Below, piece after piece: positions 2,109-47,985 of a DNA stretch of 47,985 nucleotides; the first letter of the stretch is position 1, and the number at the start of each line of letters is the position of its first letter. The notes under the pieces are model-generated. The model was not told where the DNA came from. It searched no databases and saw nothing but the letters and a program-made list of their open reading frames with translations. The DNA is from an uncultured Oscillospiraceae bacterium (GTDB taxonomy: Bacteria; Bacillota; Clostridia; Oscillospirales; Ruminococcaceae), in assembly GCA_900552845.1 (NCBI GenBank), contig USBC01000001.1:1-47985 (forward strand). The letters run 5' to 3'. Position numbers and translations under genes: made by a program.

Positions 2109-2109
<1 letters not shown>
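2064..2109 (-). terminator. Intrinsic terminator after the tRNA operon
   Basis: Stem AAAACCGACA...TGTCGGTTTT followed by a T-tract on the minus strand. Confidence 0.7.
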
Positions 2110-2183
<74 letters not shown>

Positions 2184-2190
2184 AAAAAAA

Positions 2191-2266
2191 TGGAGCGGGT
2201 TACGAGGCTCGAACTCGCTACCTCCACCTTGGCAAGGTGGCGCTCTACCAGATGAGCTAAACCCGC
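2191..2266 (-). tRNA. tRNA-Gly(GCC)
   Basis: GCGGGTTTAGCTCATCTGGTAGAGC...TTGCCAA...GTTCGAG...TCCA. Confidence 0.97.
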
Positions 2267-2274
2267 ATATTTTA

Positions 2275-2351
2275 TGGCGACCCGGATGGGGCTCGAACCC
2301 ACGACCTCTAGCGTGACAGGCTAGCGTTCTAACCAGCTGAACTACCGGGCC
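2275..2351 (-). tRNA. tRNA-Asp(GTC)
   Basis: GGCCCGGTAGTTCAGCTGGTTAGAAC...CTGTCAC...GGTTCGAG...GCCA. Confidence 0.97.
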
Positions 2352-2470: not shown

Positions 2471-3220
2471 TTACCGGCGGCGCGCCACATATACCATTCG
2501 CTGTGTCTTGGGAGTAACCGGCTGTCGGTCATAGCCTCCCCAGCGCTCCAGTATCTCAAAATGCTCCGCTTCCAGCATGGCAGTCAGTTCATTATCCTCC
2601 CATGCATATTCACAAAACTGCTCCCCATCGCGGGTGTACTGCTCTCCCGTCTCATGCTGAAAGAAATCGATCTGTATTTCCACCTTATGCCCTTCTGAGC
2701 TGTATTCATTCTGCCATATGCAAAATAAAGCCTCGCTTTCGCGCACGAAGCAATTATTCCCCAGCACCTCACGGTGCTTATAAGGAGTATTTACATCAAA
2801 GAGAAATAGCCCTCCCGGCTCTACAAAGAATTGCAGCCGGTGCAATGCCTTTTGCAGCGCCCTGCTTCCGGAAAGATGGTTGAGACTATCCAAGGTACAG
2901 ACGGCAAGATCCACTGTACCATACAGGTCAAGCTGCTCCAACGGCTGACACAGGTACAGAACCGGCTGAGAAAGCGCTAAATTCTTCTCTGAAGCCTGCA
3001 TCAGCATTTCCGGCGATGCATCTACACCGATGACCTCAAAGCCTCTCTGCGCCAATTCTGTGGCAAGGATACCGGTACCGCAGCAGAGATCCAGTACCAG
3101 TTCCCGCTTGGGGTGGTACTTTGCCAACAGTTCCTCGCAGCGGTCAGCAATCTTTGCGCGATCTACATCGTCGGTCAAGGCATCATAAAAAGCGGAGAAG
3201 GTCTCCTTATAGCTTGCCAT
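2471..3220 (-). CDS. Class I SAM-dependent methyltransferase
   Basis: VLDLCCGTG motif I, GVDASPEML, LFLFDVNT. Start chosen at MASYKETF, overlapping the upstream gene's end. Confidence 0.88.
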   Translation of the reverse strand: MASYKETFSAFYDALTDDVDRAKIADRCEELLAKYHPKRELVLDLCCGTGILATELAQRGFEVIGVDASPEMLMQASEKNLALSQPVLYLCQPLEQLDLYGTVDLAVCTLDSLNHLSGSRALQKALHRLQFFVEPGGLFLFDVNTPYKHREVLGNNCFVRESEALFCIWQNEYSSEGHKVEIQIDFFQHETGEQYTRDGEQFCEYAWEDNELTAMLEAEHFEILERWGGYDRQPVTPKTQRMVYVARRR

Positions 3221-3503
3221 CTGCCTGCTCCAGTCGTCCAAAAATGATATCGTAGCCATTGTCGACATATTTCATCGAACGATTGACTCGGCTGATGGTG
3301 GCGGTGCTGGCGCCGGTCTTTTCTACAATTTTGCTGTAAACGTTCTGCTCCTTGAGGAGCTTTGCAACCTCCAGCCGCTGTGCAATGGCTTTCAGTTCCG
3401 GGCCGGTACACAGGTCGTCAAAAAAGCGTTCGCACTCCTCCTCCGTCTGCAGCATTAGGATCGCGCGGTAAAGGAATATCAAATTGCTGTCAGGTTTTTT
3501 CAT
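3207..3503 (-). CDS. YerC/YecD family TrpR-like HTH protein
   Basis: EECERFFDDLCTGPELKAIAQRLEVAKLL...TGASTATISRVNRS signature. Start could be slightly further upstream. Confidence 0.9.
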   Translation of the reverse strand: MKKPDSNLIFLYRAILMLQTEEECERFFDDLCTGPELKAIAQRLEVAKLLKEQNVYSKIVEKTGASTATISRVNRSMKYVDNGYDIIFGRLEQADGKL

Positions 3504-3595
3504 TTTCCCCTTAAAGCCTCCCTTGTTTTTGATACGCATGTCGGTAATTCTAATATAACACTTTAGAGCATGAAAGTAAACCATAAAAGCAACTT

Positions 3596-31709: not shown

Positions 31710-31907
31710 TCAGGTGTTGGGCATCAGCAGCTTCAGCGCACCGACGTTGGTCTTATCGGCATAGGTGCCCTTGCGCAGATTTCTCTTGCGCTTGGTAGAC
31801 TTCTTGTTCAGGATATGAGACTTGTAGGCTTTGGCTCTCTTGACCTTACCGTTTTTGGTCAGCTTAAAGCGCTTTTTAGCACCGGTGTGGGTTTTCAGCT
31901 TGGGCAT
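31710..31907 (-). CDS. rpmI: 50S ribosomal protein L35
   Basis: [15 protein letters not shown]. Confidence 0.98.
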
Positions 31908-32819: not shown

Positions 32820-35800
32820 TTACAGCTCCACCTTCACTGCTTTTCCCAGGTGGAACGAGTAAAGGATCGCCTCTGCCACCGGCAGCCCCAACTGCCGCCG
32901 CACCATTGCGGCATACAGCCTGAGCTGCAAAGCGTAACGCTCCGGCAGTTCCTCCGGCTCCTTGATGCGATCGGTCTTGTAGTCCAGCAGTACGGCATGG
33001 TCGCCCTCTATCAGCACGGCGTCCACGGCACCCATCACCAGAGTGGCAGCAGGCACCGTCAGCGTTTCGTCGATTGCCGCCAGTTCCTCCGGCGTAAATT
33101 CCTGCAAAAAGCGCATCTCACGGTAAATGCGGTCAGCGCGCAGCATTCGTTCTCCCAGCGGAGAGTCGATCAGCTTTTTAAGCGTATCCGGCTCCACCAG
33201 ATCGCCGTCCTCCCGGTAAAGATACCCCTCTGTCACCAGTCGGGCAAGCTCACCCTTCGGGTCGTCCCGCAGCGCTGCAAGGTCGGCAAACTGCATGGCA
33301 CGGTGGGCGGCATTGCCCCGCTCCGTCGCCGTTGCCTCCTGCCGGGTCAGGCACTTGGGTCTGCGCCGCAGCAGATATCTTCCTCTTGCAGCACGCTCCG
33401 CCAGTTCACTCACTGCTACCCGTCGGGGCGTCACTGTGTCGGCACGGTAGGGATACTCATACGCCAATGCCGCAGTCAGCTTCTCCAGCTTTTCCTGCTC
33501 CGGCGCAGGCAAAGCCTTCTCCGTCTCATCATGCTGCATGGCAATTGCGTCCTCCTGCTGTTCCCACGGTGTTAAAAGCCGGAGGTCCAGTTCCTCCTCG
33601 CAGCACACCGCACCGCGCAGCCAGTCCCAACTGCTTGTCGCAGCGCAGGCACTCCAGCCGTAGTGCTCCGTTTCAGAGGCGTCGCTCTTTTCCATGCCCT
33701 GCGCCGCCTTACTGCCGGAAGCCACCAGATATAGCTTTTCTCTGGCACGGGTCAGCGCCACATACAAAACCCGCATCTCCTCCTGCAGCCGCAGCTTTTG
33801 GTTTTTGATTTGAACCGCCGTCAATGGCAGCGTTTTATGCTGGCGCATGGTATAGTTGTCCCGCAGCTTGCAGGCAAATCCCAGTTCGCGGTCCATGGCA
33901 ATATCGGTGCTCTCTCTCCCACGGCTGAAGCGCTCCCCGCAGCCCACTAAAAATACCACAGGGAATTCCAGTCCTTTGCTGTGGTGAATGGTCAGAACGC
34001 TGACTGCGTCTCCCTGCGCAGGGGCAGCGCTTTGCAGATGCAGTCCCCGATCCGCCATGCGGCGCAGGTATTCGGCAAAATCGCTTTCTCCCCGTCCCTC
34101 CGCCTCATGCTCGGCGGCGTGCATCTGTAAAAGACGCAGGTTGGCGACTGCCGCCTCGCCCTCCGGCAGCACACGGCACTTATCGGCAAATCCGGTCACC
34201 TCACAAATCTCCCGGATCATATCGGCAGCGGACAGCTCCTGCAGCCTGCCGCGTAACAGCGCATAGTCCCTTAGGAAGTCCCCGAATTTTGCATTCTCAG
34301 GTGTTTTTTCCAGCAGGTTGCGGTACAGTCGCTCCCGCCGTCCGGCTTGACGCAGCACCGCCAGATCATCACTGGTAAAGCCATACATCGGGCTGGTCAG
34401 TACCTCGGCAAGCTCCATATCCAGCATCGGGTTTGCCAGCACCGCCAGATAGGAAAGGACGATCTTTACCTCTCTTGTCTCCAGCAGGTTCTCATTCTTG
34501 GTGCTGCGCGCCCCAACGCCCCGTTCCAGCAGGGCATCTATGTAGATCTGATCGCGGTTTTTGGCGTTCCGCATCAGAATACAAATATCCCCCGGTCGTA
34601 CCGGTCGGCGCGCGCCGTTCTCCTCTACCGTAAAACCCTCCCGCAGCAGCCGTACGATTTCCCGTGCCACCTCGGCAGCCTCGGCGCGGCGGTAGTCATC
34701 GGCACGGGTAGAGCTGTCTCCCGTAATGACCATCGCCGTCACCGGTCTCGGTACTCCGTAATCATACGGCAGAGAAGCCACCAGCTCGTCCTCCGGCAGG
34801 TATTCCATGCCGGCAGCAGCCTGTGTCATAATCTGCCGGAACAACCGGTTGATAAAGCCTGTGATCTCCCGGCGGGTGCGGAAGTTGGCGTTCAGCGCTA
34901 TCTTGGCAGGAAACACCTTGTCGTCCACAGGAAAATAATCGGCACGCTTTTCCAAAAAGTTTTCGGGGCATGCCTCACGGAAGCTGTAAATGCTCTGCTT
35001 GACATCGCCCACCATAAAGCGGCTCGCCCCGCCTGCCGTCAGCGCTCTGAAAACCTGCTCCTGCAAAAAGCTGGTGTCCTGATATTCGTCCAGCATGATC
35101 TCGGTATAGCGGCTTCCCAGCGTCTTTGCCAATGCCGTCGGCGTTCCGTCCGGCTGTACCAGCAGCGCCAGGGTATAGTGCTCCAGATCGCTGTAATCCA
35201 GTCGTCTGCGCTCCCGCTTGGCAGCAATATAGCGGGTGTCAAATTCCAGCATCAACTCCCGCAGCCGTTCCATCAGCGGCGAAAGCGCCGTCTGGTCGGC
35301 ACGGTACTGCGCTGCGTCCATCAGGTAAATATCGGTTTTCAACTCCCGTACCATAACCACCGCCGACCGGCGCAGCTGCCGGATCTTTTCCTTGGCTGCA
35401 AGGTCGATCCACTTTTTACGGGGGAAATCCGGAAAGCTCGCCTGCAAAATCCGCTCGGTCTGGGTATCCCAGTCGTCCTCCGAAACGCTTTGCATCAGGC
35501 GCTGCAGCATGGCAAGGTCGTCCCGCAGCAGCGTGCCGATGATATCCCGCAGCAGCTCGTCCTCGCTTCCTGCCAGAAGCGTCCGGCATTCCCCGATGAG
35601 ATTGACGGCATGCTGCAGGGTCTCAGAGGCGGAAAGCCGCAGCATGTCGCACCACGCCGTTTCCTCCAGCGGCGTTTCGGCGTCGGCTTTAATGTGCTCC
35701 TGCGCCCAGCTGCGGTAAAAGGGGTGGTTGCGCAAAAAGTCGTAAAGCTGCAAAAGCGCCTGCGTCACCCCATAGTCGCTGCGGCTGCCGGAAAACAACT

Positions 35801-36281
35801 CCATGAGCCGCATGAAGTCCGGATCGCCTTTTTCGTACTCCTCGTCCAGCAGCGCCTCCAGCACCGCCGACTGTATCAGTTCATTTTCTCCCTCCCTGCC
35901 CAGCTTCATATCGCCGGGCAGCCCCAGCTCCTGAAAATTCTCCCGGATCAGCCGGTAGCAGAAGGCATGTATCGTGCAAATTTCGGCATTGCCCAGCAAA
36001 AGGCTCTGGCGGCGCAGTGCCCTATTTTCCGGCTCCTGCTCCATCTTTTCATACAGCCTTTGGGCAATACGCTGCCGCATCTCCTCTGCAGCGGCATTGG
36101 AAAAGGTCACAATGAGCAGCCGGTCAATATCCACCGGCGCTTCCCAGTCGGTAATGAGGTTCAGCACGCGCTCGGTCAGTACGGCGGTTTTTCCGCTGCC
36201 TGCCGCCGCCGACACCAGCAGATCACCGCCCCGTGTACGGATCGCCTGGCTTTGAGGCCTTGTCCATTTTCGCTCGCTCAT
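32820..36281 (-). CDS. addA: ATP-dependent helicase/nuclease subunit A
   Basis: SAAAGSGKT, DEYQD, VGDVKQSIYSFR, TIHHSKGLEF, YVALTRA, C-terminal GAVD...DYKT nuclease. Confidence 0.93.
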   Translation of the reverse strand: MSERKWTRPQSQAIRTRGGDLLVSAAAGSGKTAVLTERVLNLITDWEAPVDIDRLLIVTFSNAAAEEMRQRIAQRLYEKMEQEPENRALRRQSLLLGNAEICTIHAFCYRLIRENFQELGLPGDMKLGREGENELIQSAVLEALLDEEYEKGDPDFMRLMELFSGSRSDYGVTQALLQLYDFLRNHPFYRSWAQEHIKADAETPLEETAWCDMLRLSASETLQHAVNLIGECRTLLAGSEDELLRDIIGTLLRDDLAMLQRLMQSVSEDDWDTQTERILQASFPDFPRKKWIDLAAKEKIRQLRRSAVVMVRELKTDIYLMDAAQYRADQTALSPLMERLRELMLEFDTRYIAAKRERRRLDYSDLEHYTLALLVQPDGTPTALAKTLGSRYTEIMLDEYQDTSFLQEQVFRALTAGGASRFMVGDVKQSIYSFREACPENFLEKRADYFPVDDKVFPAKIALNANFRTRREITGFINRLFRQIMTQAAAGMEYLPEDELVASLPYDYGVPRPVTAMVITGDSSTRADDYRRAEAAEVAREIVRLLREGFTVEENGARRPVRPGDICILMRNAKNRDQIYIDALLERGVGARSTKNENLLETREVKIVLSYLAVLANPMLDMELAEVLTSPMYGFTSDDLAVLRQAGRRERLYRNLLEKTPENAKFGDFLRDYALLRGRLQELSAADMIREICEVTGFADKCRVLPEGEAAVANLRLLQMHAAEHEAEGRGESDFAEYLRRMADRGLHLQSAAPAQGDAVSVLTIHHSKGLEFPVVFLVGCGERFSRGRESTDIAMDRELGFACKLRDNYTMRQHKTLPLTAVQIKNQKLRLQEEMRVLYVALTRAREKLYLVASGSKAAQGMEKSDASETEHYGWSACAATSSWDWLRGAVCCEEELDLRLLTPWEQQEDAIAMQHDETEKALPAPEQEKLEKLTAALAYEYPYRADTVTPRRVAVSELAERAARGRYLLRRRPKCLTRQEATATERGNAAHRAMQFADLAALRDDPKGELARLVTEGYLYREDGDLVEPDTLKKLIDSPLGERMLRADRIYREMRFLQEFTPEELAAIDETLTVPAATLVMGAVDAVLIEGDHAVLLDYKTDRIKEPEELPERYALQLRLYAAMVRRQLGLPVAEAILYSFHLGKAVKVEL

Positions 36282-39200
36282 TGTCCTTCCTCCTCTCCGC
36301 CCAGCTCCCTATGGCAGCCATCGGGCTTATTGTTGTTGCAAAGCCCCGCATAGGGACAGTAGCCGCAGGGGTCGTTTCCTCCGCCCCGTGCCGGTAAGGG
36401 CGCCACCTTACCGGCAAGCAGCTCGGTCCCCATTCCGGTTATATTATCGTAAACGGTCTCCCGCAGCTTTTCAAAGGCCTCGCGGCTGTAAACCCGCGAT
36501 GCCTTGGAAAGTTCGCCCTTCTGGGTCAGTGCCGCCGGGATATATACCCCCGCCAACTCCTGCTCCATGGCGCGCAGCACCGTTTCGTCCTCCAGCAGCA
36601 TGCCCTTCATGCGCAGCGCCTTGCTAATGGCTTCCTCCACCCCCTCCTCGGGGAGATCCGCAGTGGTATTTACCGCCTCCAGCCGGCTGGGGAGGTACAA
36701 TACGCCGGCAGGCTGCGGTGTGCCGAAGCGGTGTCCCTCATCGCCGCAGGCGGCGTAGAGGTAGATGAGCATCTGCATATTCAGTCCGTAGGACACCTCT
36801 TCAAATTTGAATTCCTTGGTGCCGGATTTGTAGTCGATGACCCGCAGGTAGTCGCCGTCCGTCCCGTGGTACAGGTCAACACGGTCGATGGAACCGCGCA
36901 GCAAAATCGGGGTACCGTCCTCCGCCGCAAGGCGGGGGGACGCCACCTCTCCGCCCTCCCCGACCGAGACCTCGGTAGCGGCGGTAAAGAACTCGCTCTG
37001 GGCAAATTCGGCAGCAAGGTGCCGCACAATAACTCCCAGCATCAGCCGCAGGCGGTCAAACTGGTAGCGAAATCGAGCTGTAACGGCATCAGGGTTCGGT
37101 ATCATTCGGTCAATGTACTCCCGAAGATAACGCCGAATGCCGCCGTCCAACTCGTCATCGGTAAGAGTGGACAGGCCATCGCTGCCGTAGCAGTTTACCA
37201 TCTGCTGAAAGACATAGTGAATCGCGGAACCGGATTCAAACGGGGAAAATTCGACTCGCTGGCGCGGGCGGAGCCGCAGCATTTTATCACAGAAAAAGAA
37301 ATAGGGACACTGGTAGAACCGGTCGATGGCGGTAGGAGCAAGCCGAAGCTCCCGACCCAGCAGGGCGCGGGCATTTTCGGGGGTAATGCCGGCTGCCGGA
37401 AGATCGGCGGCGGCACGGGTCAGCGCCTTGGGATAGTCCCCCTCACCCAGCCGCTCCAAAAGCGCCGACAGCAGCGCCTCCTCCTCGGGGCGGCGCCCCA
37501 GTGCGGCAGCGCAGCGGCTCTTGGCGGTCGTTCGGTTCACCACCCAAAAATCGAGCGGCATCTGTTCTGTCGGCTCCGCTGTAATGTTCAAGGGGCGAAT
37601 CGTCCGCAAAAGATAGCTTGCCGGTGCCAAAGCAGTATCCCCTGCAATGCTGCGGCGGGCATAGGTAATATAAAGCCGCTGGGCAGGGGCGGTAAGCGCC
37701 GAGTACAGCACAAACTGCTCCCGCAGGGCGCTTTCCGTTCCGATGACCGGCAGCTCGGTGCCGCGGGCATTCAATTCCTCCCTTTCGCGGGCGGAAAAAA
37801 GTCCTGCCGTTTTTCCGACAGCGGGGAACACGCCCTCATTGACGCCGAGGACGAAAACCGCACGGGGCGACTGCAGGCGCACCCGGTCGCTTTCCGCCAG
37901 AAGGACATGATCGACAGTATTGGGCACGCTGCCCAGATCAATGCGGGAAAGCGCCAGCCGGAACAGGTCGCTCCACTCCCGTGCCGAAAGAGTTTTCCCG
38001 GTGTAAAAATCGCTCATCAGGTCCAGCACATCGACAATGCAGTTCCATTGGCGGTCGATTGCTTCCCGCTCCGCCATCTCGCAGCCGGCAGTCAGGTGGG
38101 TCAATGCATCGGCGGCGGCAACATAGCGGTACACCGCCGTGGCAAAGCCGACACCGTCAGCGCTTCGCAACGCCTGCCGCAGTACCTCCAGCGGCTCCAT
38201 GACTATCCTGCGGGCAGCCTCAATTTTGGCAAGCTCTGCAGCATAGTCCTCCGCCGCAGCGTCGGATAACCCCTCCGGATTGGCAGTGAAGGAGCGCAGC
38301 CAGTCTTCCCCGCCGATATTCCACACAAAGCAGTAATTCTCCAGTTGACCCGCCTGCTGGGGATCCAGCCCCGAAGCGGCGGAGCGTGCAAGCCGCAGTA
38401 CCGCAGCGGTCTTTATGCCGCCGACTGCCGCCTCCAATGCAGTGAGGATATAAAACGGCAGCGGAGCAAGCAGGATATTCTGCTTTTCGCCGCAGAAATA
38501 GGGCAGTTGATATTCCTCCAGTACCGTTTTGGCGTTGCGGTACCGCTCCATATCCCGGCACAGTATAACGCAGTCCCGATAGCGGCAGCCCTCCTGCCGC
38601 ACCAGCCGGCTGATCTCCGCTGCGGCAAAGCGCATCTCCTCGTAGACTGTCGGCGCTTCAATGAGCCGCAGGGCGTCCCCCGTTACCGGAGCGACGGTTC
38701 CGGGATCGGTAAATGCCTGCCGCAGCGCAGCAAGATCGGGGCTGTTTTTGTGGCGTTCATCGCCGGTTAGGAAAAGCGGCTCCTCGCATGCGCACCTGTG
38801 CGCCCCCGCATACGCGCGCAGGCGCAGGAGGAATTTTTTTTGATAAAGGAAGATGTCCTCACCGGGGTCGAGAGAGGGGCAGGTCATCGAGAGGGTGAGC
38901 TGCGAAGCGGAGAGAAGCATCTGCTCCAAAAGGGCGCGCTCACTGACCGAAAAATAGTCGAAGCTGTCAACCCAGATATGTTTGCCAGCGAACCAGTCCT
39001 TTTCGGCGGCACGCTGCAGGGCGAGGGTCAGCTCGTCCAACGGGTCGTGAAAGCGCTGTTCCACCAGCGCAGCAAACGCCTCATAGATAAGGGACATATC
39101 CCGCAGCTTTTCGCCCAAAGCGCCGACGGTCTGCTCTGCCAGCTCCGCTACGCCCTGCGGCGTGATACCGGCACGCTTGAAATCCGCCACAGTTTGCAGC

Positions 39201-39556
39201 ATATCGCTCAAAAAGCCGGTATAACCTGCCTGACGACGGTAAATACCGAGCTGTTCCTGTACCTCATCAATGGCTTCCCGCATCAAAAGGGCACGGCTGA
39301 CCTCATCAAGGGGGCGGCTGGTCAGACCGCCGCACTCCCGAAAGATATTTTCCGCAAGCCGCGGAAAGCTGAGCAGTGTGATATACTGCTGTTCCTCGCC
39401 GGTAAACAGGGCGCTGACACGGCGCTCCATCTCAAAGGAGGCATGCTCCGGCACCAACAGCAGGACGCTCTGCTGCCGTGCGGCGGCTTCTCTTATCTGG
39501 CGCAGCACCTCGGTGGTTTTTCCGGCACCGGCTTCGCCTAAAATCATTCGCAGCAT
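36278..39556 (-). CDS. addB: ATP-dependent helicase/nuclease subunit B
   Basis: GEAGAGKT, CPY, GSIDRVD...IDYKSG, C-terminal CGYCPYAGLC Fe-S staple. ATG 39556 after RBS AAAGGAG. Confidence 0.92.
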   Translation of the reverse strand: MLRMILGEAGAGKTTEVLRQIREAAARQQSVLLLVPEHASFEMERRVSALFTGEEQQYITLLSFPRLAENIFRECGGLTSRPLDEVSRALLMREAIDEVQEQLGIYRRQAGYTGFLSDMLQTVADFKRAGITPQGVAELAEQTVGALGEKLRDMSLIYEAFAALVEQRFHDPLDELTLALQRAAEKDWFAGKHIWVDSFDYFSVSERALLEQMLLSASQLTLSMTCPSLDPGEDIFLYQKKFLLRLRAYAGAHRCACEEPLFLTGDERHKNSPDLAALRQAFTDPGTVAPVTGDALRLIEAPTVYEEMRFAAAEISRLVRQEGCRYRDCVILCRDMERYRNAKTVLEEYQLPYFCGEKQNILLAPLPFYILTALEAAVGGIKTAAVLRLARSAASGLDPQQAGQLENYCFVWNIGGEDWLRSFTANPEGLSDAAAEDYAAELAKIEAARRIVMEPLEVLRQALRSADGVGFATAVYRYVAAADALTHLTAGCEMAEREAIDRQWNCIVDVLDLMSDFYTGKTLSAREWSDLFRLALSRIDLGSVPNTVDHVLLAESDRVRLQSPRAVFVLGVNEGVFPAVGKTAGLFSAREREELNARGTELPVIGTESALREQFVLYSALTAPAQRLYITYARRSIAGDTALAPASYLLRTIRPLNITAEPTEQMPLDFWVVNRTTAKSRCAAALGRRPEEEALLSALLERLGEGDYPKALTRAAADLPAAGITPENARALLGRELRLAPTAIDRFYQCPYFFFCDKMLRLRPRQRVEFSPFESGSAIHYVFQQMVNCYGSDGLSTLTDDELDGGIRRYLREYIDRMIPNPDAVTARFRYQFDRLRLMLGVIVRHLAAEFAQSEFFTAATEVSVGEGGEVASPRLAAEDGTPILLRGSIDRVDLYHGTDGDYLRVIDYKSGTKEFKFEEVSYGLNMQMLIYLYAACGDEGHRFGTPQPAGVLYLPSRLEAVNTTADLPEEGVEEAISKALRMKGMLLEDETVLRAMEQELAGVYIPAALTQKGELSKASRVYSREAFEKLRETVYDNITGMGTELLAGKVAPLPARGGGNDPCGYCPYAGLCNNNKPDGCHRELGGEEEGQ

Positions 39557-39622
39557 AGGAAAACTCCTTTCAGGGGTGGTTCGATGGAGAGAGCTAAGGG
39601 AACACTGGAAGGAACCGGAAAG

Positions 39623-39711
39623 ACCGCCCGCAGGGCGCGCCGCCGCAGGCGGCGCAGAGGGCGGCAAAGCCGCCCCAAGCGCCCCGCAGGGGCGCTTGCC
39701 CTGCGGGCGGT
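39623..39711. repeat. GC-rich four-way-junction palindromic element (REP/MITE-like) in the addB leader
   Basis: Perfect 14-bp outer stem enclosing three perfect hairpins of 8, 7 and 9 bp with 3-nt loops. Confidence 0.75.
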
Positions 39712-39872
39712 GGGGTAAAAAGCTATGCGCCCCTTGACCGTTCCTGTGAATAATACAATTCTTAAATTTAATTGTAGCACACAATTTGCCGCAGGTACAG
39801 CCTTTGGAAAAGAAAAAACGAACAAATTTTCTTTTTTGTGATATTTCAGCCATTTTTCTGTCATTTTCTGCG

Positions 39873-39925
39873 CAAAACGCCGCCTGCATACCCAAAGGTG
39901 ATGGGAAGCAGGCGGCGGGCTTTTG
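39873..39925 (-). terminator. Terminator after spo0A
   Basis: CGCCGCCTGC...GCAGGCGGCG stem with T residues on both sides. Confidence 0.7.
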
Positions 39926-39940
39926 GTTCGGAGAAAAGTA

Positions 39941-40723
39941 TTATGCAAGAGAGAAATTGACGCCCTTGTAGCGCAGGCGGATCTTATCTGCAATCATGGC
40001 AATGAACTCCGAATTGGTCGGTTTTCCGCGAAGATTGTGAATGGTGTATCCGAAGTAGGAATTCAGAATATCCACATCACCGCGGTCCCATGCGACCTCG
40101 ATTGCATGGCGAATGGCTCGTTCCACACGGGAGGCGGTCGTTTCATTCTTTTTGGCGATCGCCGGATACAGCTCCTTCGTCACTCCGTTAATGATCTCCG
40201 GCTGGCGTACCGTCATAATGATTCCGTCGCGGATATACTGATAGCCCTTGATATGTGCCGGTATTCCGATTTGAAGGATCATCTCGGTGACCACCGTTTC
40301 AAGATCCACCGGCTGATCAGCCGGACGGGATACCACTCCGGTCCGACTTTGACCGTACATCATTTCTACACGGTCGGCAAGGACGTCGGGATCAAAGGGC
40401 TTGACAAAGTGATAAACGGCACCGGCACGGATCAGCTGCCCCGAAAGTCCGGTGCTGTCCACGCTGCTCATGGTGAAGATCGCCGGTCGGAGCCCGCACT
40501 CCCCGCGGGCTACTGCCGTCAGCACGCCAAGGGCGTCCAGACTGCTTAAAAAGGCTTCCATCAGCACCACGCGGGGCTTATATTCCCGAATCAGCTCCAA
40601 CAGCTGTCTGCCGTCCTTGCGGCATGCCAGCACCTCAAAACCCTTTTCCTCCAACGCTTTCTTGCAGCTATTGCAGAATTCGCCGGCATCATCGGCAATC
40701 AACAAATAATTTCGGTTATTCAT
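39941..40723 (-). CDS. spo0A: Sporulation master regulator Spo0A, with Glu at the phosphoacceptor position
   Basis: C-terminal GIPAHIKGYQY, TKELYPAIAK, TTASRVERAIRHAIEVAW, KPTNSEFIAMIADKIRL; N-terminal receiver domain. Confidence 0.96.
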   Translation of the reverse strand: MNNRNYLLIADDAGEFCNSCKKALEEKGFEVLACRKDGRQLLELIREYKPRVVLMEAFLSSLDALGVLTAVARGECGLRPAIFTMSSVDSTGLSGQLIRAGAVYHFVKPFDPDVLADRVEMMYGQSRTGVVSRPADQPVDLETVVTEMILQIGIPAHIKGYQYIRDGIIMTVRQPEIINGVTKELYPAIAKKNETTASRVERAIRHAIEVAWDRGDVDILNSYFGYTIHNLRGKPTNSEFIAMIADKIRLRYKGVNFSLA

Positions 40724-40959: not shown

Positions 40960-41271
40960 TCAAGTGTATCTTGCCACATATTCCGCCGGTGGCGGGATCG
41001 TTTCCGCACGGCGGTAGACCGATCCGTCGCGGGTGCGCTCCAGCAGGCAGGTATCATACAGCGCCCGCCGCAGTGTAGCCGGGTCACGAAAGGTCGTCCA
41101 GTTATTCAGCAGGTCATTGATCTCACCTTCGGTATATTGTCTGCCCGTTTCCATCTTTTGGGACAGATAGTAGAGGGCAAGCAGCTTCTTTTTTCGTTTG
41201 ACGGGCAGCGCTGTCAATTGCCCCTTTTCGTTCAAAAAGGGCTTCAGCTCCGGAATATCACAATTTGGCAC
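40960..41271 (-). CDS. DUF2087 family small protein (winged-helix-like)
   Basis: GQLTALPVKRKKK...YTEGEINDLL...DPATLRRAL...LLERTRDGSVY; RBS GGAGG before GTG. Confidence 0.8.
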   Translation of the reverse strand: MPNCDIPELKPFLNEKGQLTALPVKRKKKLLALYYLSQKMETGRQYTEGEINDLLNNWTTFRDPATLRRALYDTCLLERTRDGSVYRRAETIPPPAEYVARYT

Positions 41272-45520: not shown

Positions 45521-46216
45521 ATGTATAACATTATCGTGTGCGATGATGAACAGGATATCGTTTCAGCGCTGGAAATTTACCTGACGGCAGAGGGCTACCA
45601 TGTGCTGCGGGCGGAAAACGGCAGGGAGGCGCTGGCGCTTGTCCAAAGGGAGGACGCCCACCTGATGCTGCTGGACGTGATGATGCCGCAGATGGACGGA
45701 CTGGAGACGCTTTCCAAGCTGCGGGAGTTTTCCAATATTCCCGTGATACTGCTGACCGCCAAAAGCGAGGATACCGATAAAATTCTGGGGCTGAACATTG
45801 GCGCAGACGACTATATCACCAAGCCCTTTAACCCCGTGGAGGTGCTGGCGCGGGTGCGCAGCCAACTGCGGCGGTACCTGCAGCTGGGCGGCGGTGCGGT
45901 GCGTCCGGCAAGCGTTGTCATCGGCGGGATAGAGCTGGACGATAACGCCAAAACCGTAACGGTGGACGGCGATCCGGTGACGCTGACCCCCAAGGAATAT
46001 GATATCCTGCGCTTTTTGATGCAGAATGCCGGAACGGTATTCACGCCGGCGGAAATTTACCGGCGGGTGTGGGACGACATTCCCTTAAACGCCGCCGGAA
46101 GCATTGCGGTGCATATCCGGCATTTAAGAGAGAAAATCGAGATCAATCCCGCCGAGCCTCGGTACATCAAGGTGGTGTGGGGCAAGGGCTACAAAATGGA
46201 GGTGAACCCTGCATGA
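45521..46216 (+). CDS. OmpR/PhoB family response regulator
   Basis: CDDE, LLDVMMPQMDG, LTAK, DDYITKPF, VHIRHLREKIE...VWGKGYK. Confidence 0.95.
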   Translation: MYNIIVCDDEQDIVSALEIYLTAEGYHVLRAENGREALALVQREDAHLMLLDVMMPQMDGLETLSKLREFSNIPVILLTAKSEDTDKILGLNIGADDYITKPFNPVEVLARVRSQLRRYLQLGGGAVRPASVVIGGIELDDNAKTVTVDGDPVTLTPKEYDILRFLMQNAGTVFTPAEIYRRVWDDIPLNAAGSIAVHIRHLREKIEINPAEPRYIKVVWGKGYKMEVNPA

Positions 46217-47985
46217 AGCGCTTTTTGGATAAGACATGGGCAAAGGTTGCTGCCTTTATTCTGTTCTTTGTTTTTCTGGGGCTTTCGATTGCCGGCGGTG
46301 TGGGAATCTACTTTCTTGCCGCAAATGATGTCTACCTTGCCGGCAGCGAGGCAAGCCGGCAGATCCTGTATGATGGTCAGGCAAGCGATGTGATGACCAC
46401 GGTGATTGACGGACTGTATAACTGCAGTGATAAGGAAGCGCTGCGGGACTGGCTGCTGGAACGGTGCCCGCCGGAGAACGGCTACGGCATTACCGTGACC
46501 AATACCGCCACCGGCGAGGAGTTCTCGACTGCCCTGCCAAAGGACGCCAAGATCATTTATACTGCCCACCGAAGAACCGTTTTTTCCGGAACGGAGCTGA
46601 ACGTGACCATAGAGCTGCAGGAGGGCTTTATCCCCCGCACCTATGAATATCGGCTGTCGTTGTGGCTGATGGATATAAAGGACATTATTATCCCGCTGAC
46701 GGTGCTGTTTGTGGTGCTGGCGCTGTTCTGCTTCTTCTGGCAGATGGCTGCCGCCGGTCACTGGCAGGGATTTGAGGGCATTCACCTGACATGGTTCGAT
46801 AAGATCCCGCTGGATCTGATGGCGGTCGGTATTCTCATTCCCGCCCTCGCTATTTTCGGGGAATACTATTTATACAGTTCCGGCTTGTTGACGGCGCTGT
46901 GGGGAACAGCTATTCTCTGTTTTGTTTATCTGTTTATCATCTCCTTTGTCACCCGCTGCAAGGCAGGAACGGTGCTGAAGAACAATGTCGTCTGGTATGC
47001 CATTAGGCTGCTGTGGCGGATCGTCAAAAGCATATGGGGCTGGCTCCTTCATCTGGTACGCTCCATTCCGCTGATCTGGCGGACGGCACTGGTGATTGCT
47101 GCCATATGCCTGTTTATCCTTATCACCGGCAGTTACAATTCGATGTTGTCGCTGCCCATGGTTCTGCTGTATCTGCTGCTGATGATGTTCGCGCTTTATG
47201 TTGCCATTGGATTTGCTACCCTGCAGCGCGGCTCCAAGGCATTGGCGGAGGGTGATTACAGCAAGCCGGTGGATACGCGCTTTTTGCGGGGTGATCTGAA
47301 GCGGTGCGGCGAGAACCTAAATAAAGTGCAGCAGGGCGTGCAGCGTGCCGTAGATGAGCGGCTGCGCAGCGAACGCATGAAAACCGAGCTGATCACCAAT
47401 GTATCGCATGATATCAAAACGCCGCTGACCAGCATTGTGAACTATGTGGATCTGCTGAAAAAGGAGCCGATCGAAAACCCCAAGGCGCAGGAATACCTGG
47501 AGGTGCTGGACCGGCAGAGCAAGCGGCTGAAAAAGCTGACAGAGGATCTGGTGGAGGCAAGCAAGGCTTCCAGCGGGGTGATCCCGGTGGACTGCCAGCC
47601 CACCAATGTGAATGTGCTGCTTTCCCAACTGGAAGGCGAATATGAGGAGCGGCTGCAAAAGGCGGAGCTGACGATGATCGTCCACCCTGCCGCAGGCGAC
47701 CCTGTGGTGCTGGCAGACGGCAAGCTGCTGAGCCGTGTAATGGATAACCTGATGAACAACATCGTGAAATATGCCATGCCCGGCACCCGCGTTTACGCCG
47801 CTGCCGCCGCCGACGAGCAGGAAACGACCATCAGCATTAAAAATGTTTCCCGCAACGAGCTGAATGTTTCCGCCGACGAGCTGATGGAGCGCTTTGTGCG
47901 CGGGGACAGCAGCCGCCACACCGAGGGCAGCGGACTGGGGCTTTCCATTGCCCGCAGTCTGGTGGAGCTACAGGGCGGTCGGTTT
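46213..47985 (+). CDS. Membrane sensor histidine kinase, truncated by the window edge
   Basis: ATG overlaps the regulator stop; multiple TM segments; in-frame TELITNVSHDIKTPLT (H box), NLMNNIVKY (N box), GSGLGLSIA (G box). No stop inside the window, so absent from the ORF track. Confidence 0.93.
   Translation, partial: MKRFLDKTWAKVAAFILFFVFLGLSIAGGVGIYFLAANDVYLAGSEASRQILYDGQASDVMTTVIDGLYNCSDKEALRDWLLERCPPENGYGITVTNTATGEEFSTALPKDAKIIYTAHRRTVFSGTELNVTIELQEGFIPRTYEYRLSLWLMDIKDIIIPLTVLFVVLALFCFFWQMAAAGHWQGFEGIHLTWFDKIPLDLMAVGILIPALAIFGEYYLYSSGLLTALWGTAILCFVYLFIISFVTRCKAGTVLKNNVVWYAIRLLWRIVKSIWGWLLHLVRSIPLIWRTALVIAAICLFILITGSYNSMLSLPMVLLYLLLMMFALYVAIGFATLQRGSKALAEGDYSKPVDTRFLRGDLKRCGENLNKVQQGVQRAVDERLRSERMKTELITNVSHDIKTPLTSIVNYVDLLKKEPIENPKAQEYLEVLDRQSKRLKKLTEDLVEASKASSGVIPVDCQPTNVNVLLSQLEGEYEERLQKAELTMIVHPAAGDPVVLADGKLLSRVMDNLMNNIVKYAMPGTRVYAAAAADEQETTISIKNVSRNELNVSADELMERFVRGDSSRHTEGSGLGLSIARSLVELQGGRF

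Follow-up and report, generated by a model that had tools for sequence, protein, structure and literature searches.

A Spo0A ortholog with glutamate at the phospho-acceptor position in an uncultured Oscillospiraceae bacterium

Spo0A is taken to be activated by phosphorylation of one conserved aspartate (Asp) in every endospore former, as stated in reviews and mutagenesis studies. What such a regulator may do when this very residue is replaced is the question raised by a spo0A gene on contig USBC01000001.1 (assembly GCA_900552845.1) of an uncultured Oscillospiraceae bacterium. The stretch of DNA analysed comprises positions 1 to 47,985 of this contig and is referred to as the window. The gene lies on the minus strand and encodes glutamate (Glu) at the acceptor position of its receiver domain. 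A first-pass annotation, made from the sequence without database searches, had read this codon as the mark of a phosphorylation-independent or pseudo-receiver Spo0A. Here the protein, its relatives and its locus are examined, and the explanations for a natural Glu-type Spo0A are weighed against each other.

The protein and its acceptor position

The coding sequence, its domains and the positions of the receiver pocket were located as follows.

39941..40723, minus strand: spo0A coding sequence, 260 codons plus stop, protein P0001 (open reading frame list and translation)
40346..40708, minus strand: receiver domain, residues 6-126 (AlphaFold2 secondary structure, predicted local distance difference test (pLDDT), Foldseek)
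39968..40303, minus strand: DNA-binding/trans-activation domain, residues 141-252 (phmmer and Foldseek to 1lq1)
40688..40693, minus strand: Asp-Asp acidic pair, codons 11-12, retained (translation, alignment)
40556..40558, minus strand: codon 56, GAA = Glu, phospho-acceptor position (strand read directly, 1dz3/1qmp alignment, model)
40544..40549, minus strand: Leu-Ser, codons 59-60, in the beta3-alpha3 loop (most relatives have Met-Pro)
40466..40468, minus strand: Ser at the conserved Thr/Ser position, codon 86, retained (translation, alignment)
40397..40402, minus strand: conserved Lys-Pro, codons 108-109, retained in K108-P109-F110 (translation, alignment)

By sequence, fold and locus, the window protein is a full Spo0A. 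It scored 259.5 bits against the NCBIfam Spo0A equivalog TIGR02875 (cutoff 200), which covered residues 7-253 of 260, and it matched the Pfam families Response_reg (PF00072, residues 8-119, 43.6 bits against a gathering score of 30.2) and Spo0A_C (PF08769, residues 145-248, 149 bits). A phmmer search against PDB chains paired the C-terminal half with the Spo0A domains 1lq1 and 1fc3 at E-values of about 1e-41 (1lq1_A, 7.9e-42). Over the aligned part, the DNA-binding domain was 57-59% identical to that of Bacillus and Geobacillus Spo0A, and the recognition-helix stretch TTASRVERAIRHAIEVAW was the same as in B. subtilis in the alignment to 1lq1_A. The AlphaFold2 model, based on 64 aligned relatives, reached a mean pLDDT of 88.1, with residues 11-120 in blocks of 89-97, and contained a regular (beta-alpha)5 receiver fold (beta1 6-10, beta3 52-56, beta4 81-86, beta5 104-107, alpha5 112-126). 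Foldseek superimposed the model on the chains of the B. subtilis Spo0A-DNA complex 1lq1 with template modelling (TM) scores of 0.92-0.95 and root-mean-square deviations of 1.1-1.5 A, and on the phosphorylated Spo0A receiver 1qmp_D with a TM score (target) of 0.84. In the ESM Atlas, Spo0A clusters alone were matched. With the Spo0A_C score and the superposition on 1lq1, the DNA-binding domain proved as canonical as it had been described from the sequence.

At the end of beta-3, where a Spo0A receiver carries its phosphorylatable Asp (Asp56 in B. subtilis numbering), the window protein has Glu instead. The minus-strand codons read GTG CTG ATG GAA GCC TTT TTA AGC AGT, with GAA at 40558-40556, and place the residue in the protein context KPRVVLM-E-AFLSSLDALGVL. 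In the phmmer alignment 'vlmEaflssldalgvl' was paired with 'lllDiimphldglavl' of the Spo0A receiver 1dz3/1qmp, and E56 stood opposite the Asp that is phosphorylated in 1qmp according to the title of the PDB entry. In the model, E56 is the final residue of beta-3, S86 ends beta-4 and K108 follows beta-5. Direct reading of the strand, the alignment to known receivers and the model thus bear out the Glu at residue 56 reported by the first-pass annotation.

Its description of the surrounding pocket held as well: the acidic pair D11-D12, S86 and K108-P109-F110 are present, and the Met-Pro next to the acceptor is replaced by Leu-Ser at 59-60, positions at which 104/121 and 66/121 rows carry Met and Pro, respectively, in an alignment of the query and its 120 best matches. 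No other Asp stands at the acceptor position, the neighbours of E56 being M55 and A57. D63 or another Asp was considered as a substitute acceptor and ruled out, because none flanks E56 and D63 is near-invariant in all acceptor types (243/245 Asp-type, 46/47 Glu-type and 17/17 other sequences), kept in Asp-type proteins just as in the others.

In the loci of relatives, Asp is encoded by GAT/GAC and Glu by GAA/GAG, so that each change between the two is one third-base step. The window receiver became an aspartate-less (pseudo-)receiver by one such change, from GAY to GAA. An OmpR-type regulator in the same window (45521-46213) has an ordinary DD...D...T...K receiver, which shows the loss of the acceptor Asp to be specific to Spo0A.

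Glutamate in the clade and among wider relatives

In a protein search, a 100%-identical match was the representative of a 121-member cluster, identity being judged from the sequence of the representative alone; the next relatives were 67-83% identical. Glu occupied the acceptor position in 9/9 distinct lineages of the window's clade, the eight others being 68-83% identical to the window protein, and the acceptor column of the query and its 120 best matches held 92 Asp, 28 Glu and one gap. Trees were inferred with IQ-TREE from 39 rows after removal of the acceptor column, with FastTree as a second view. Both methods placed the window protein in a clade of ten rows (Shimodaira-Hasegawa-like approximate likelihood ratio test (SH-aLRT) 98), nine of them with Glu. 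Asp occurs in the tenth, P0012 (70% identical), which is nested behind branches with support of 96 and 99. A tree grouping the nine Glu rows without P0012 was rejected, with a log-likelihood lower by 42.9 and a p-value of 0.0008 in the approximately unbiased test (p-AU), the constrained group having been defined after inspection of the first tree. Because P0012 is nested with support and the constrained tree was rejected, Glu is on these phylogenies ancestral to the window's clade, and P0012 looks like a Glu-to-Asp reversion. Fixation of Glu in the clade, which the first-pass annotation had proposed to check, is thus borne out, with P0012 as a single nested Asp row.

In P0018, which is 63% identical and the closest outgroup with Asp, the corresponding stretch is M-D-A-F-L-S. 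The Leu-Ser loop thus predates the Asp-to-Glu change, since it is already present in this Asp-type protein, and a second Glu-type clade (P0024, P0029, P0036, P0049) has a V-F-M-P loop. On these two grounds, the idea that the loop arose with the Asp-to-Glu change was rejected. The second Glu clade holds a nested Asp-type protein, P0047, a possible second reversion with a weak support of 82. Among the substitutions specific to the window's clade (K21, R35, Y48, G74, C76, Q96, S102, V107, M121 and others) no interpretable pattern was found.

Wider samples revealed the acceptor position to be variable. Genome loci were represented by the best 80 of at least 602 stretches, taken from species representatives at 48-57% identity, a sample in which closer genomes were probably missed. 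Their acceptor residues were Asp in 68 loci, Glu in 9, Asn in 2 and Pro in 1 (12/80 non-Asp), and all nine Glu-type loci came from uncultured metagenome-assembled genomes (MAGs). Among the query and 150 representatives of 50%-identity clusters, the counts were D 92, E 18, N 4, S 4 and A 2, with P, C, G and Y once each; 27 rows had no residue at this position, being fragments or lacking the receiver. Pooling of three overlapping samples gave 347 rows, with some duplicates between samples, of which 309 cover both domains. The latter comprised D 245, E 47, N 6, S 4, P 2, A 2 and C, G and Y 1 each (64/309 non-Asp). A FastTree phylogeny of the 309 sequences required at least 36 changes between Asp and non-Asp and at least 24 between Glu and other residues, counts that are inflated by tree error. 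In the loci L023, L037, L055, L074, L075 and L080 of Faecalibacterium, Gemmiger and Subdoligranulum, the acceptor Asp was kept, the first acidic residue was Ser or Thr and the Thr/Ser position was Gly; judged by these residues, the Spo0A proteins of the three genera represent a different route of receiver degeneration.

The receiver of the window's clade was well conserved. DD, S/T, H-F and K-P were unchanged in 14/14 rows. Pairs of non-independent sequences were compared at equal identity of the DNA-binding domain: at 0.85-0.90, receiver identity was 0.665 in 26 clade pairs and 0.499 (standard deviation 0.080) in 1423 Asp-Asp pairs, and at 0.80-0.85 it was 0.652 in 9 clade pairs and 0.417 in 3047 Asp-Asp pairs. 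The ratio of nonsynonymous to synonymous substitution rates (dN/dS) was computed on Glu lineages outside the window's clade, among which L056/L068 is the only pair with unsaturated dS. For this pair, another Glu lineage, the receiver dN/dS was 0.040 at a dS of 0.705 over 120 codons. Three more distant Glu-Glu pairs had receiver values of 0.07-0.10 with dS saturated, and four Asp-Asp pairs had values of 0.03-0.08, a fifth being too saturated for a value. By these measures, the receiver and the remaining residues of its pocket continue to be constrained, and the domain has no look of decay.

The spo0A locus and the rest of the window

The immediate surroundings of spo0A contain the following features.

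39874..39925, minus strand: probable intrinsic terminator, a stem-loop with U run just past the spo0A stop (RNA fold)
40736-40728, minus strand: strong ribosome-binding site GAGGAGGAG (by eye)
40788-40760, minus strand: possible spo0A promoter, TTGAAT, 17 nt, TAATAT (by eye, tentative)
40960..41271, minus strand: DUF2087 gene where relatives have spoIVB (Pfam PF09860, 82.6 bits)
32820..39553, minus strand: addB (about 36278-39553) and addA (32820-36281), directly downstream of spo0A (NCBIfam TIGR02773, TIGR02785)

The fold of the minus-strand RNA at 39860-39945 had an energy of -34.3 kcal/mol (z -5.49), and 0/200 shuffled sequences were as stable. A consensus terminator scan did not have this stem-loop in its list, its size exceeding the limits of the scan. 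As the probable terminator directly follows the stop codon, spo0A is probably monocistronic. The promoter candidate is sigma-70-like and agrees with 8/12 consensus positions, which is below the threshold of the promoter scan, and it was absent from the scan list. A sigma-H-like promoter upstream of spo0A was rejected: the best match (14/15) was reached by 7/200 shuffles and lies inside the DUF2087 open reading frame (ORF). The listed AddB ORF (36278-39895, minus strand) begins with a TTG start at 39895, and similarity to AddB sets in at residue 115, about 39553. The extra 114 codons cross the spo0A terminator hairpin. The actual start codon of addB probably lies close to 39553, and a stretch of about 390 bp ahead of it would then be non-coding.

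The gene order spo0A-addB-addA was also found in the Asp-type loci L001 and L013, both with an intact spoIVB upstream, and spo0A-addB in L006. Because the addB-addA synteny is common to the window, L001 and L013, the window gene is by its position an ortholog of spo0A, in a locus that has lost spoIVB. A tblastn search of the window with the SpoIVB of L001 gave no match (best E 3.1). Among related loci, spoIVB was the nearest upstream ORF in 35/77 (3 of the best 80 had no upstream ORF in range), namely in 31/65 Asp-type, 3/9 Glu-type, 1/2 Asn-type and 0/1 Pro-type loci; an absent SpoIVB is a soft call here, since the scan was confined to one ORF per locus, the longest of those with an end no more than 1.2 kb upstream. 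No clear link between the acceptor state and adjacency to spoIVB was apparent from 31/65 Asp-type and 3/9 Glu-type loci. The Glu-type loci L012, L056 and L068 and the Asn-type L002 lie directly behind a SpoIVB ORF, which is intact in the three Glu loci; the SpoIVB scores of L056 and L068 (303.7 and 302.4) fall just below the cutoff of 305.25. Eight ORFs flanking the spo0A of L012 yielded one weak ParA-like match and nothing else. A second spo0A match within 6 kb was found in 0 of the best 80 loci.

No histidine kinase gene adjoins spo0A in the window, its neighbours being addB and the DUF2087 gene. The sole kinase of the window (46069-47985) pairs with its own OmpR-type regulator: at 45521-47985 on the plus strand, an OmpR/VanR-like regulator with canonical receiver precedes a histidine kinase gene that is cut off by the end of the window. 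This canonical pair indicates that ordinary two-component signalling exists in the genome. No other sporulation family was detected among the 41 large and 19 small ORFs of the 48-kb window. With no further sporulation gene and spoIVB missing upstream, the window lends no support to the suggestion of the first-pass annotation that the gene bears on how Clostridia start sporulation. A result from 48 kb says little about the sporulation genes of the whole genome, and the organism may not sporulate at all. In a search for 0A boxes, the heptamer TGTCGAA was absent from the window (0, against 4.7 expected from dinucleotide shuffles or about 0.7 from a maximal-order Markov model), and TGNCGAA occurred 30 times against 28.9 expected.

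The window is otherwise a stretch of Clostridia housekeeping genes (rnfCDGEAB, efp, leuS, smc, ftsY, rnc, plsX, trmFO, topA, dprA, rplT-rpmI-infC and addA-addB), with the DUF2087 gene, an asparaginase gene, mgtE, a glycosyltransferase gene and the OmpR-type regulator and kinase past spo0A. Smaller features of this stretch, none of them unusual, are given below.

2109-2351, minus strand: tRNA-Cys/Gly/Asp cluster
3210-3584, minus strand: small protein of the Trp-repressor family (PF01371)
31713-31907, minus strand: rpmI, between infC and rplT

Downstream of a Xaa-Pro aminopeptidase gene and efp, the segment 9516-12567 (minus strand) encodes a protein with a CD1247 N-terminal and zinc-ribbon domain and a Hpre_diP_synt_I membrane protein, followed by the rnf operon. 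In B. subtilis the spoIIIA operon adjoins efp; no spoIIIA operon was found beside the efp of the window. Several palindromes were rare in the window by comparison with a maximal-order Markov model (GGCC 34 against about 278 expected, ACGT 28 against 79, CGCG 140 against 281), and GATC was near expectation (247 against 236). The avoidance of palindromes may reflect restriction-modification pressure. All of the at least 120 leucyl-tRNA synthetase (LeuRS) matches listed were 95-100% identical to that of the window, which shows that the organism is common in public assemblies.

Function of a Spo0A without the acceptor aspartate

Receivers with Glu at the acceptor are a well-described class, and the window Spo0A belongs with the aspartate-less or pseudo-receiver regulators. 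In aspartate-less receivers Glu is the commonest acceptor replacement (26%) and can give phosphate-independent activation (PMC4395418), for which it may engage the conserved Thr and Lys (PMC12632262). In such receivers, loss of the second acidic residue (retained in 29%) and of the Lys (a basic residue in 70%) is frequent (PMC4395418), whereas the window's clade keeps all. ChxR of Chlamydia trachomatis, plant pseudo-response regulators and the fungal Rim15p have Glu at the acceptor like the window Spo0A (PMC4395418; PMC12632262), but differ from it in their output families (OmpR-type, CCT, kinase). ChxR is reported to dimerise and bind DNA without phosphorylation (PMC3960148), and it shares a DNA-binding output with the window protein. 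Engineered Asp-to-Glu phosphomimics of NtrC and other regulators carry the same substitution and have partial phosphate-independent activity (PMC4395418; PMC12632262); these are laboratory mutants, whereas the Glu of the window is natural, fixed and old.

Like the canonical Spo0A of Bacillus, Geobacillus and C. difficile, the window protein has two domains, an equivalog score, the receiver fold, DD, S/T and K-P, and it is encoded by an orphan gene without adjacent kinase. It differs from them by Glu in place of the phosphorylated Asp, by L-S-S for M-P-H and by the lack of spoIVB upstream; in C. difficile, Spo0A with P60A has been described as unstable. The Spo0A proteins of Faecalibacterium, Gemmiger and Subdoligranulum are of the same family and order as the window's and keep the acceptor Asp except in the Gemmiger MAG L057, which has Glu. 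Spo0A homologs are reported to be expressed in F. duncaniae, a non-spore-former. Unlike the homologs of non-spore-forming Oscillospiraceae, the window Spo0A keeps all pocket residues save the Asp.

A census of 2015 counted 7 Asp-less proteins among 391 of Response_reg~Spo0A_C architecture (PMC4395418, supplementary file 6, row 40). These seven share architecture, defect and phylum with the window Spo0A, and the table gives counts without sequences, residues, clades, loci or function. In the main text of the same paper, Spo0A appears only for engineered Asp-to-Glu mutants and in the reference list. Beyond this count, a full-text literature search found no natural Asp-less Spo0A described or studied, and none is described in the available sections of sporulation-gene surveys, a paper on Spo0 pathway evolution, a review of clostridial kinases and papers using spo0A as marker. 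What appears to be new is that Glu is fixed at the level of a clade, that the gene is a positional ortholog whose pocket is otherwise retained, and that switching between Asp and Glu has recurred.

Histidine kinases and phosphotransferases pass their phosphoryl group to the beta-3 Asp of receivers. To our knowledge, Glu at this position is not a substrate. Since phosphotransfer needs the beta-3 Asp, the usual signal from kinase to Spo0A cannot work at E56. The explanation that we favour, with a confidence only somewhat above even, is that the window gene encodes a functional Spo0A ortholog whose aspartate-less receiver would be active without Asp phosphorylation and whose output would be set by abundance or partners. 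With its longer acidic side chain, and together with S86 and K108, Glu would bias the receiver to an active, dimer-competent state and would thus act as a built-in partial phosphomimic. A phosphorylation-independent Spo0A is favoured because the Thr/Ser and Lys that Glu may engage are kept in the window's clade. The protein would bind 0A-type boxes through its unchanged recognition helix, and its activity would follow the amount of protein (with its own probable terminator and possible own promoter) or its partners rather than a kinase. The regulon may consist of sporulation or of post-sporulation genes. Of the interpretation in the first-pass annotation, the acceptor unusable as an aspartyl-phosphate site and the intact pocket and DNA-binding domain stand, while 'constitutive' goes a conjectural step further.

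Several points weigh against an active Glu-type Spo0A. Phosphomimicry by the Glu of the window protein is what we infer from its sequence, and Asp-to-Glu alone is often insufficient, Spo0A being named as a case with reference to Green et al. 1991 (PMC4395418). Changes beside the acceptor (M59A, H61A) reduce sporulation in C. difficile, and the window protein differs in this region. The comparison of the receiver with the DNA-binding domain measures a ratio between domains, and a faster DNA-binding domain would give the same pattern. The supported reversion in P0012 could point to a continuing use for a phosphorylatable site in this lineage; the pocket might therefore be kept for phosphorylation and not for Glu. 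In the pooled sample, the other four pocket positions were intact in 126/245 Asp-type and 25/47 Glu-type rows. The pocket is thus loose across the group whatever the acceptor, and its conservation may partly be inertia. Finally, with 48 kb of the genome visible, a further, canonical copy of spo0A may exist outside the window.

The most serious alternative, possible though on balance unlikely, is that sporulation has been lost and that the receiver is locked off or merely structural. Spo0A would then be a low-activity or differently regulated binder of non-sporulation genes, and Glu a tolerated, charge-conserving replacement that followed the loss of any use for kinase input. The lack of spoIVB at its usual place, at which the syntenic Asp-type L001 and L013 have one, and of other sporulation families among the ORFs of the window would agree with such a loss. 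spo0A is kept in 40/104 non-spore-formers according to a preprint, and in F. duncaniae, and non-acidic residues (N, S, A, P, C, G, Y) occupy the acceptor in 17/309 relatives; the reported failure of Asp-to-Glu alone to activate Spo0A (PMC4395418) points in the same direction. A useless site should drift, yet Glu was present in all nine lineages, and the only change led back to Asp. The pocket is invariant in all 14 clade rows, conservation of the receiver is no lower than in Asp-type relatives, and three Glu-type proteins (L012, L056, L068) are encoded directly behind an intact SpoIVB ORF. The retention of Glu over 17-32% protein divergence, together with the invariant pocket and conserved receiver, likewise disfavours the 'inactive' option that the first-pass annotation had offered.

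We consider it quite improbable that sporulation is run by a canonical Asp-type Spo0A encoded outside the window and that the Glu-type copy modulates it, for instance by competition for 0A boxes or in mixed dimers. Clostridia with two spo0A copies (10) or three (1) make up 11/118 genomes in a preprint, F. duncaniae is reported to have three Spo0A homologs, and the visible part of the genome would leave room for another copy. The window gene, however, occupies the ancestral spo0A position beside addB-addA, an arrangement shared with loci that have spoIVB ahead of spo0A, and its product exceeds the cutoff of the Spo0A equivalog. In the trees, the window's clade arises among ordinary single-hit Spo0A sequences, and none of the best 80 loci has a second match nearby. 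An even smaller chance is given to the idea that Glu itself is regulated, by methyl-esterification or unusual phosphorylation, so that the switch would be kept with a different chemistry. Methylation or phosphorylation of Glu has been raised as conceivable, but no example is known in bacterial signalling, according to the same source (PMC4395418). The conserved pocket speaks for such a switch, but no methyltransferase or kinase gene adjoins spo0A, and the one methyltransferase gene of the window (2474-3268) is 37 kb away. A sequencing or assembly error or a decaying gene, although a single base separates the codon from that for Asp, can practically be dismissed in view of the identical representative with 121 members, the eight further Glu lineages at 68-83% identity, the intact frame with ribosome-binding site and terminator, and the constraint statistics.

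The distribution of acceptor residues allows a broader reading for the gut and rumen Oscillospiraceae-like Clostridia, one that we hold to be rather doubtful. The acceptor would be an evolutionary toggle, in which third-base flips switch between a kinase-gated Asp and an abundance-gated Glu Spo0A while the pocket stays ready for both. This idea is based on the minimum of 24 Glu changes in 309 sequences, one supported reversion and the three Glu loci behind intact spoIVB. If some Glu-type organisms still sporulate, endospore formation can be launched in them without any Spo0A phosphorylation, a step which the field treats as universal. The acceptor residue also matters where the presence of spo0A serves as an initial marker of the potential to sporulate in genomes and MAGs: in the workflow descriptions available, this residue goes unchecked. 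A natural Spo0A ortholog that is under selection without a usable Asp offers a system for asking what Spo0A does minus its kinase input.

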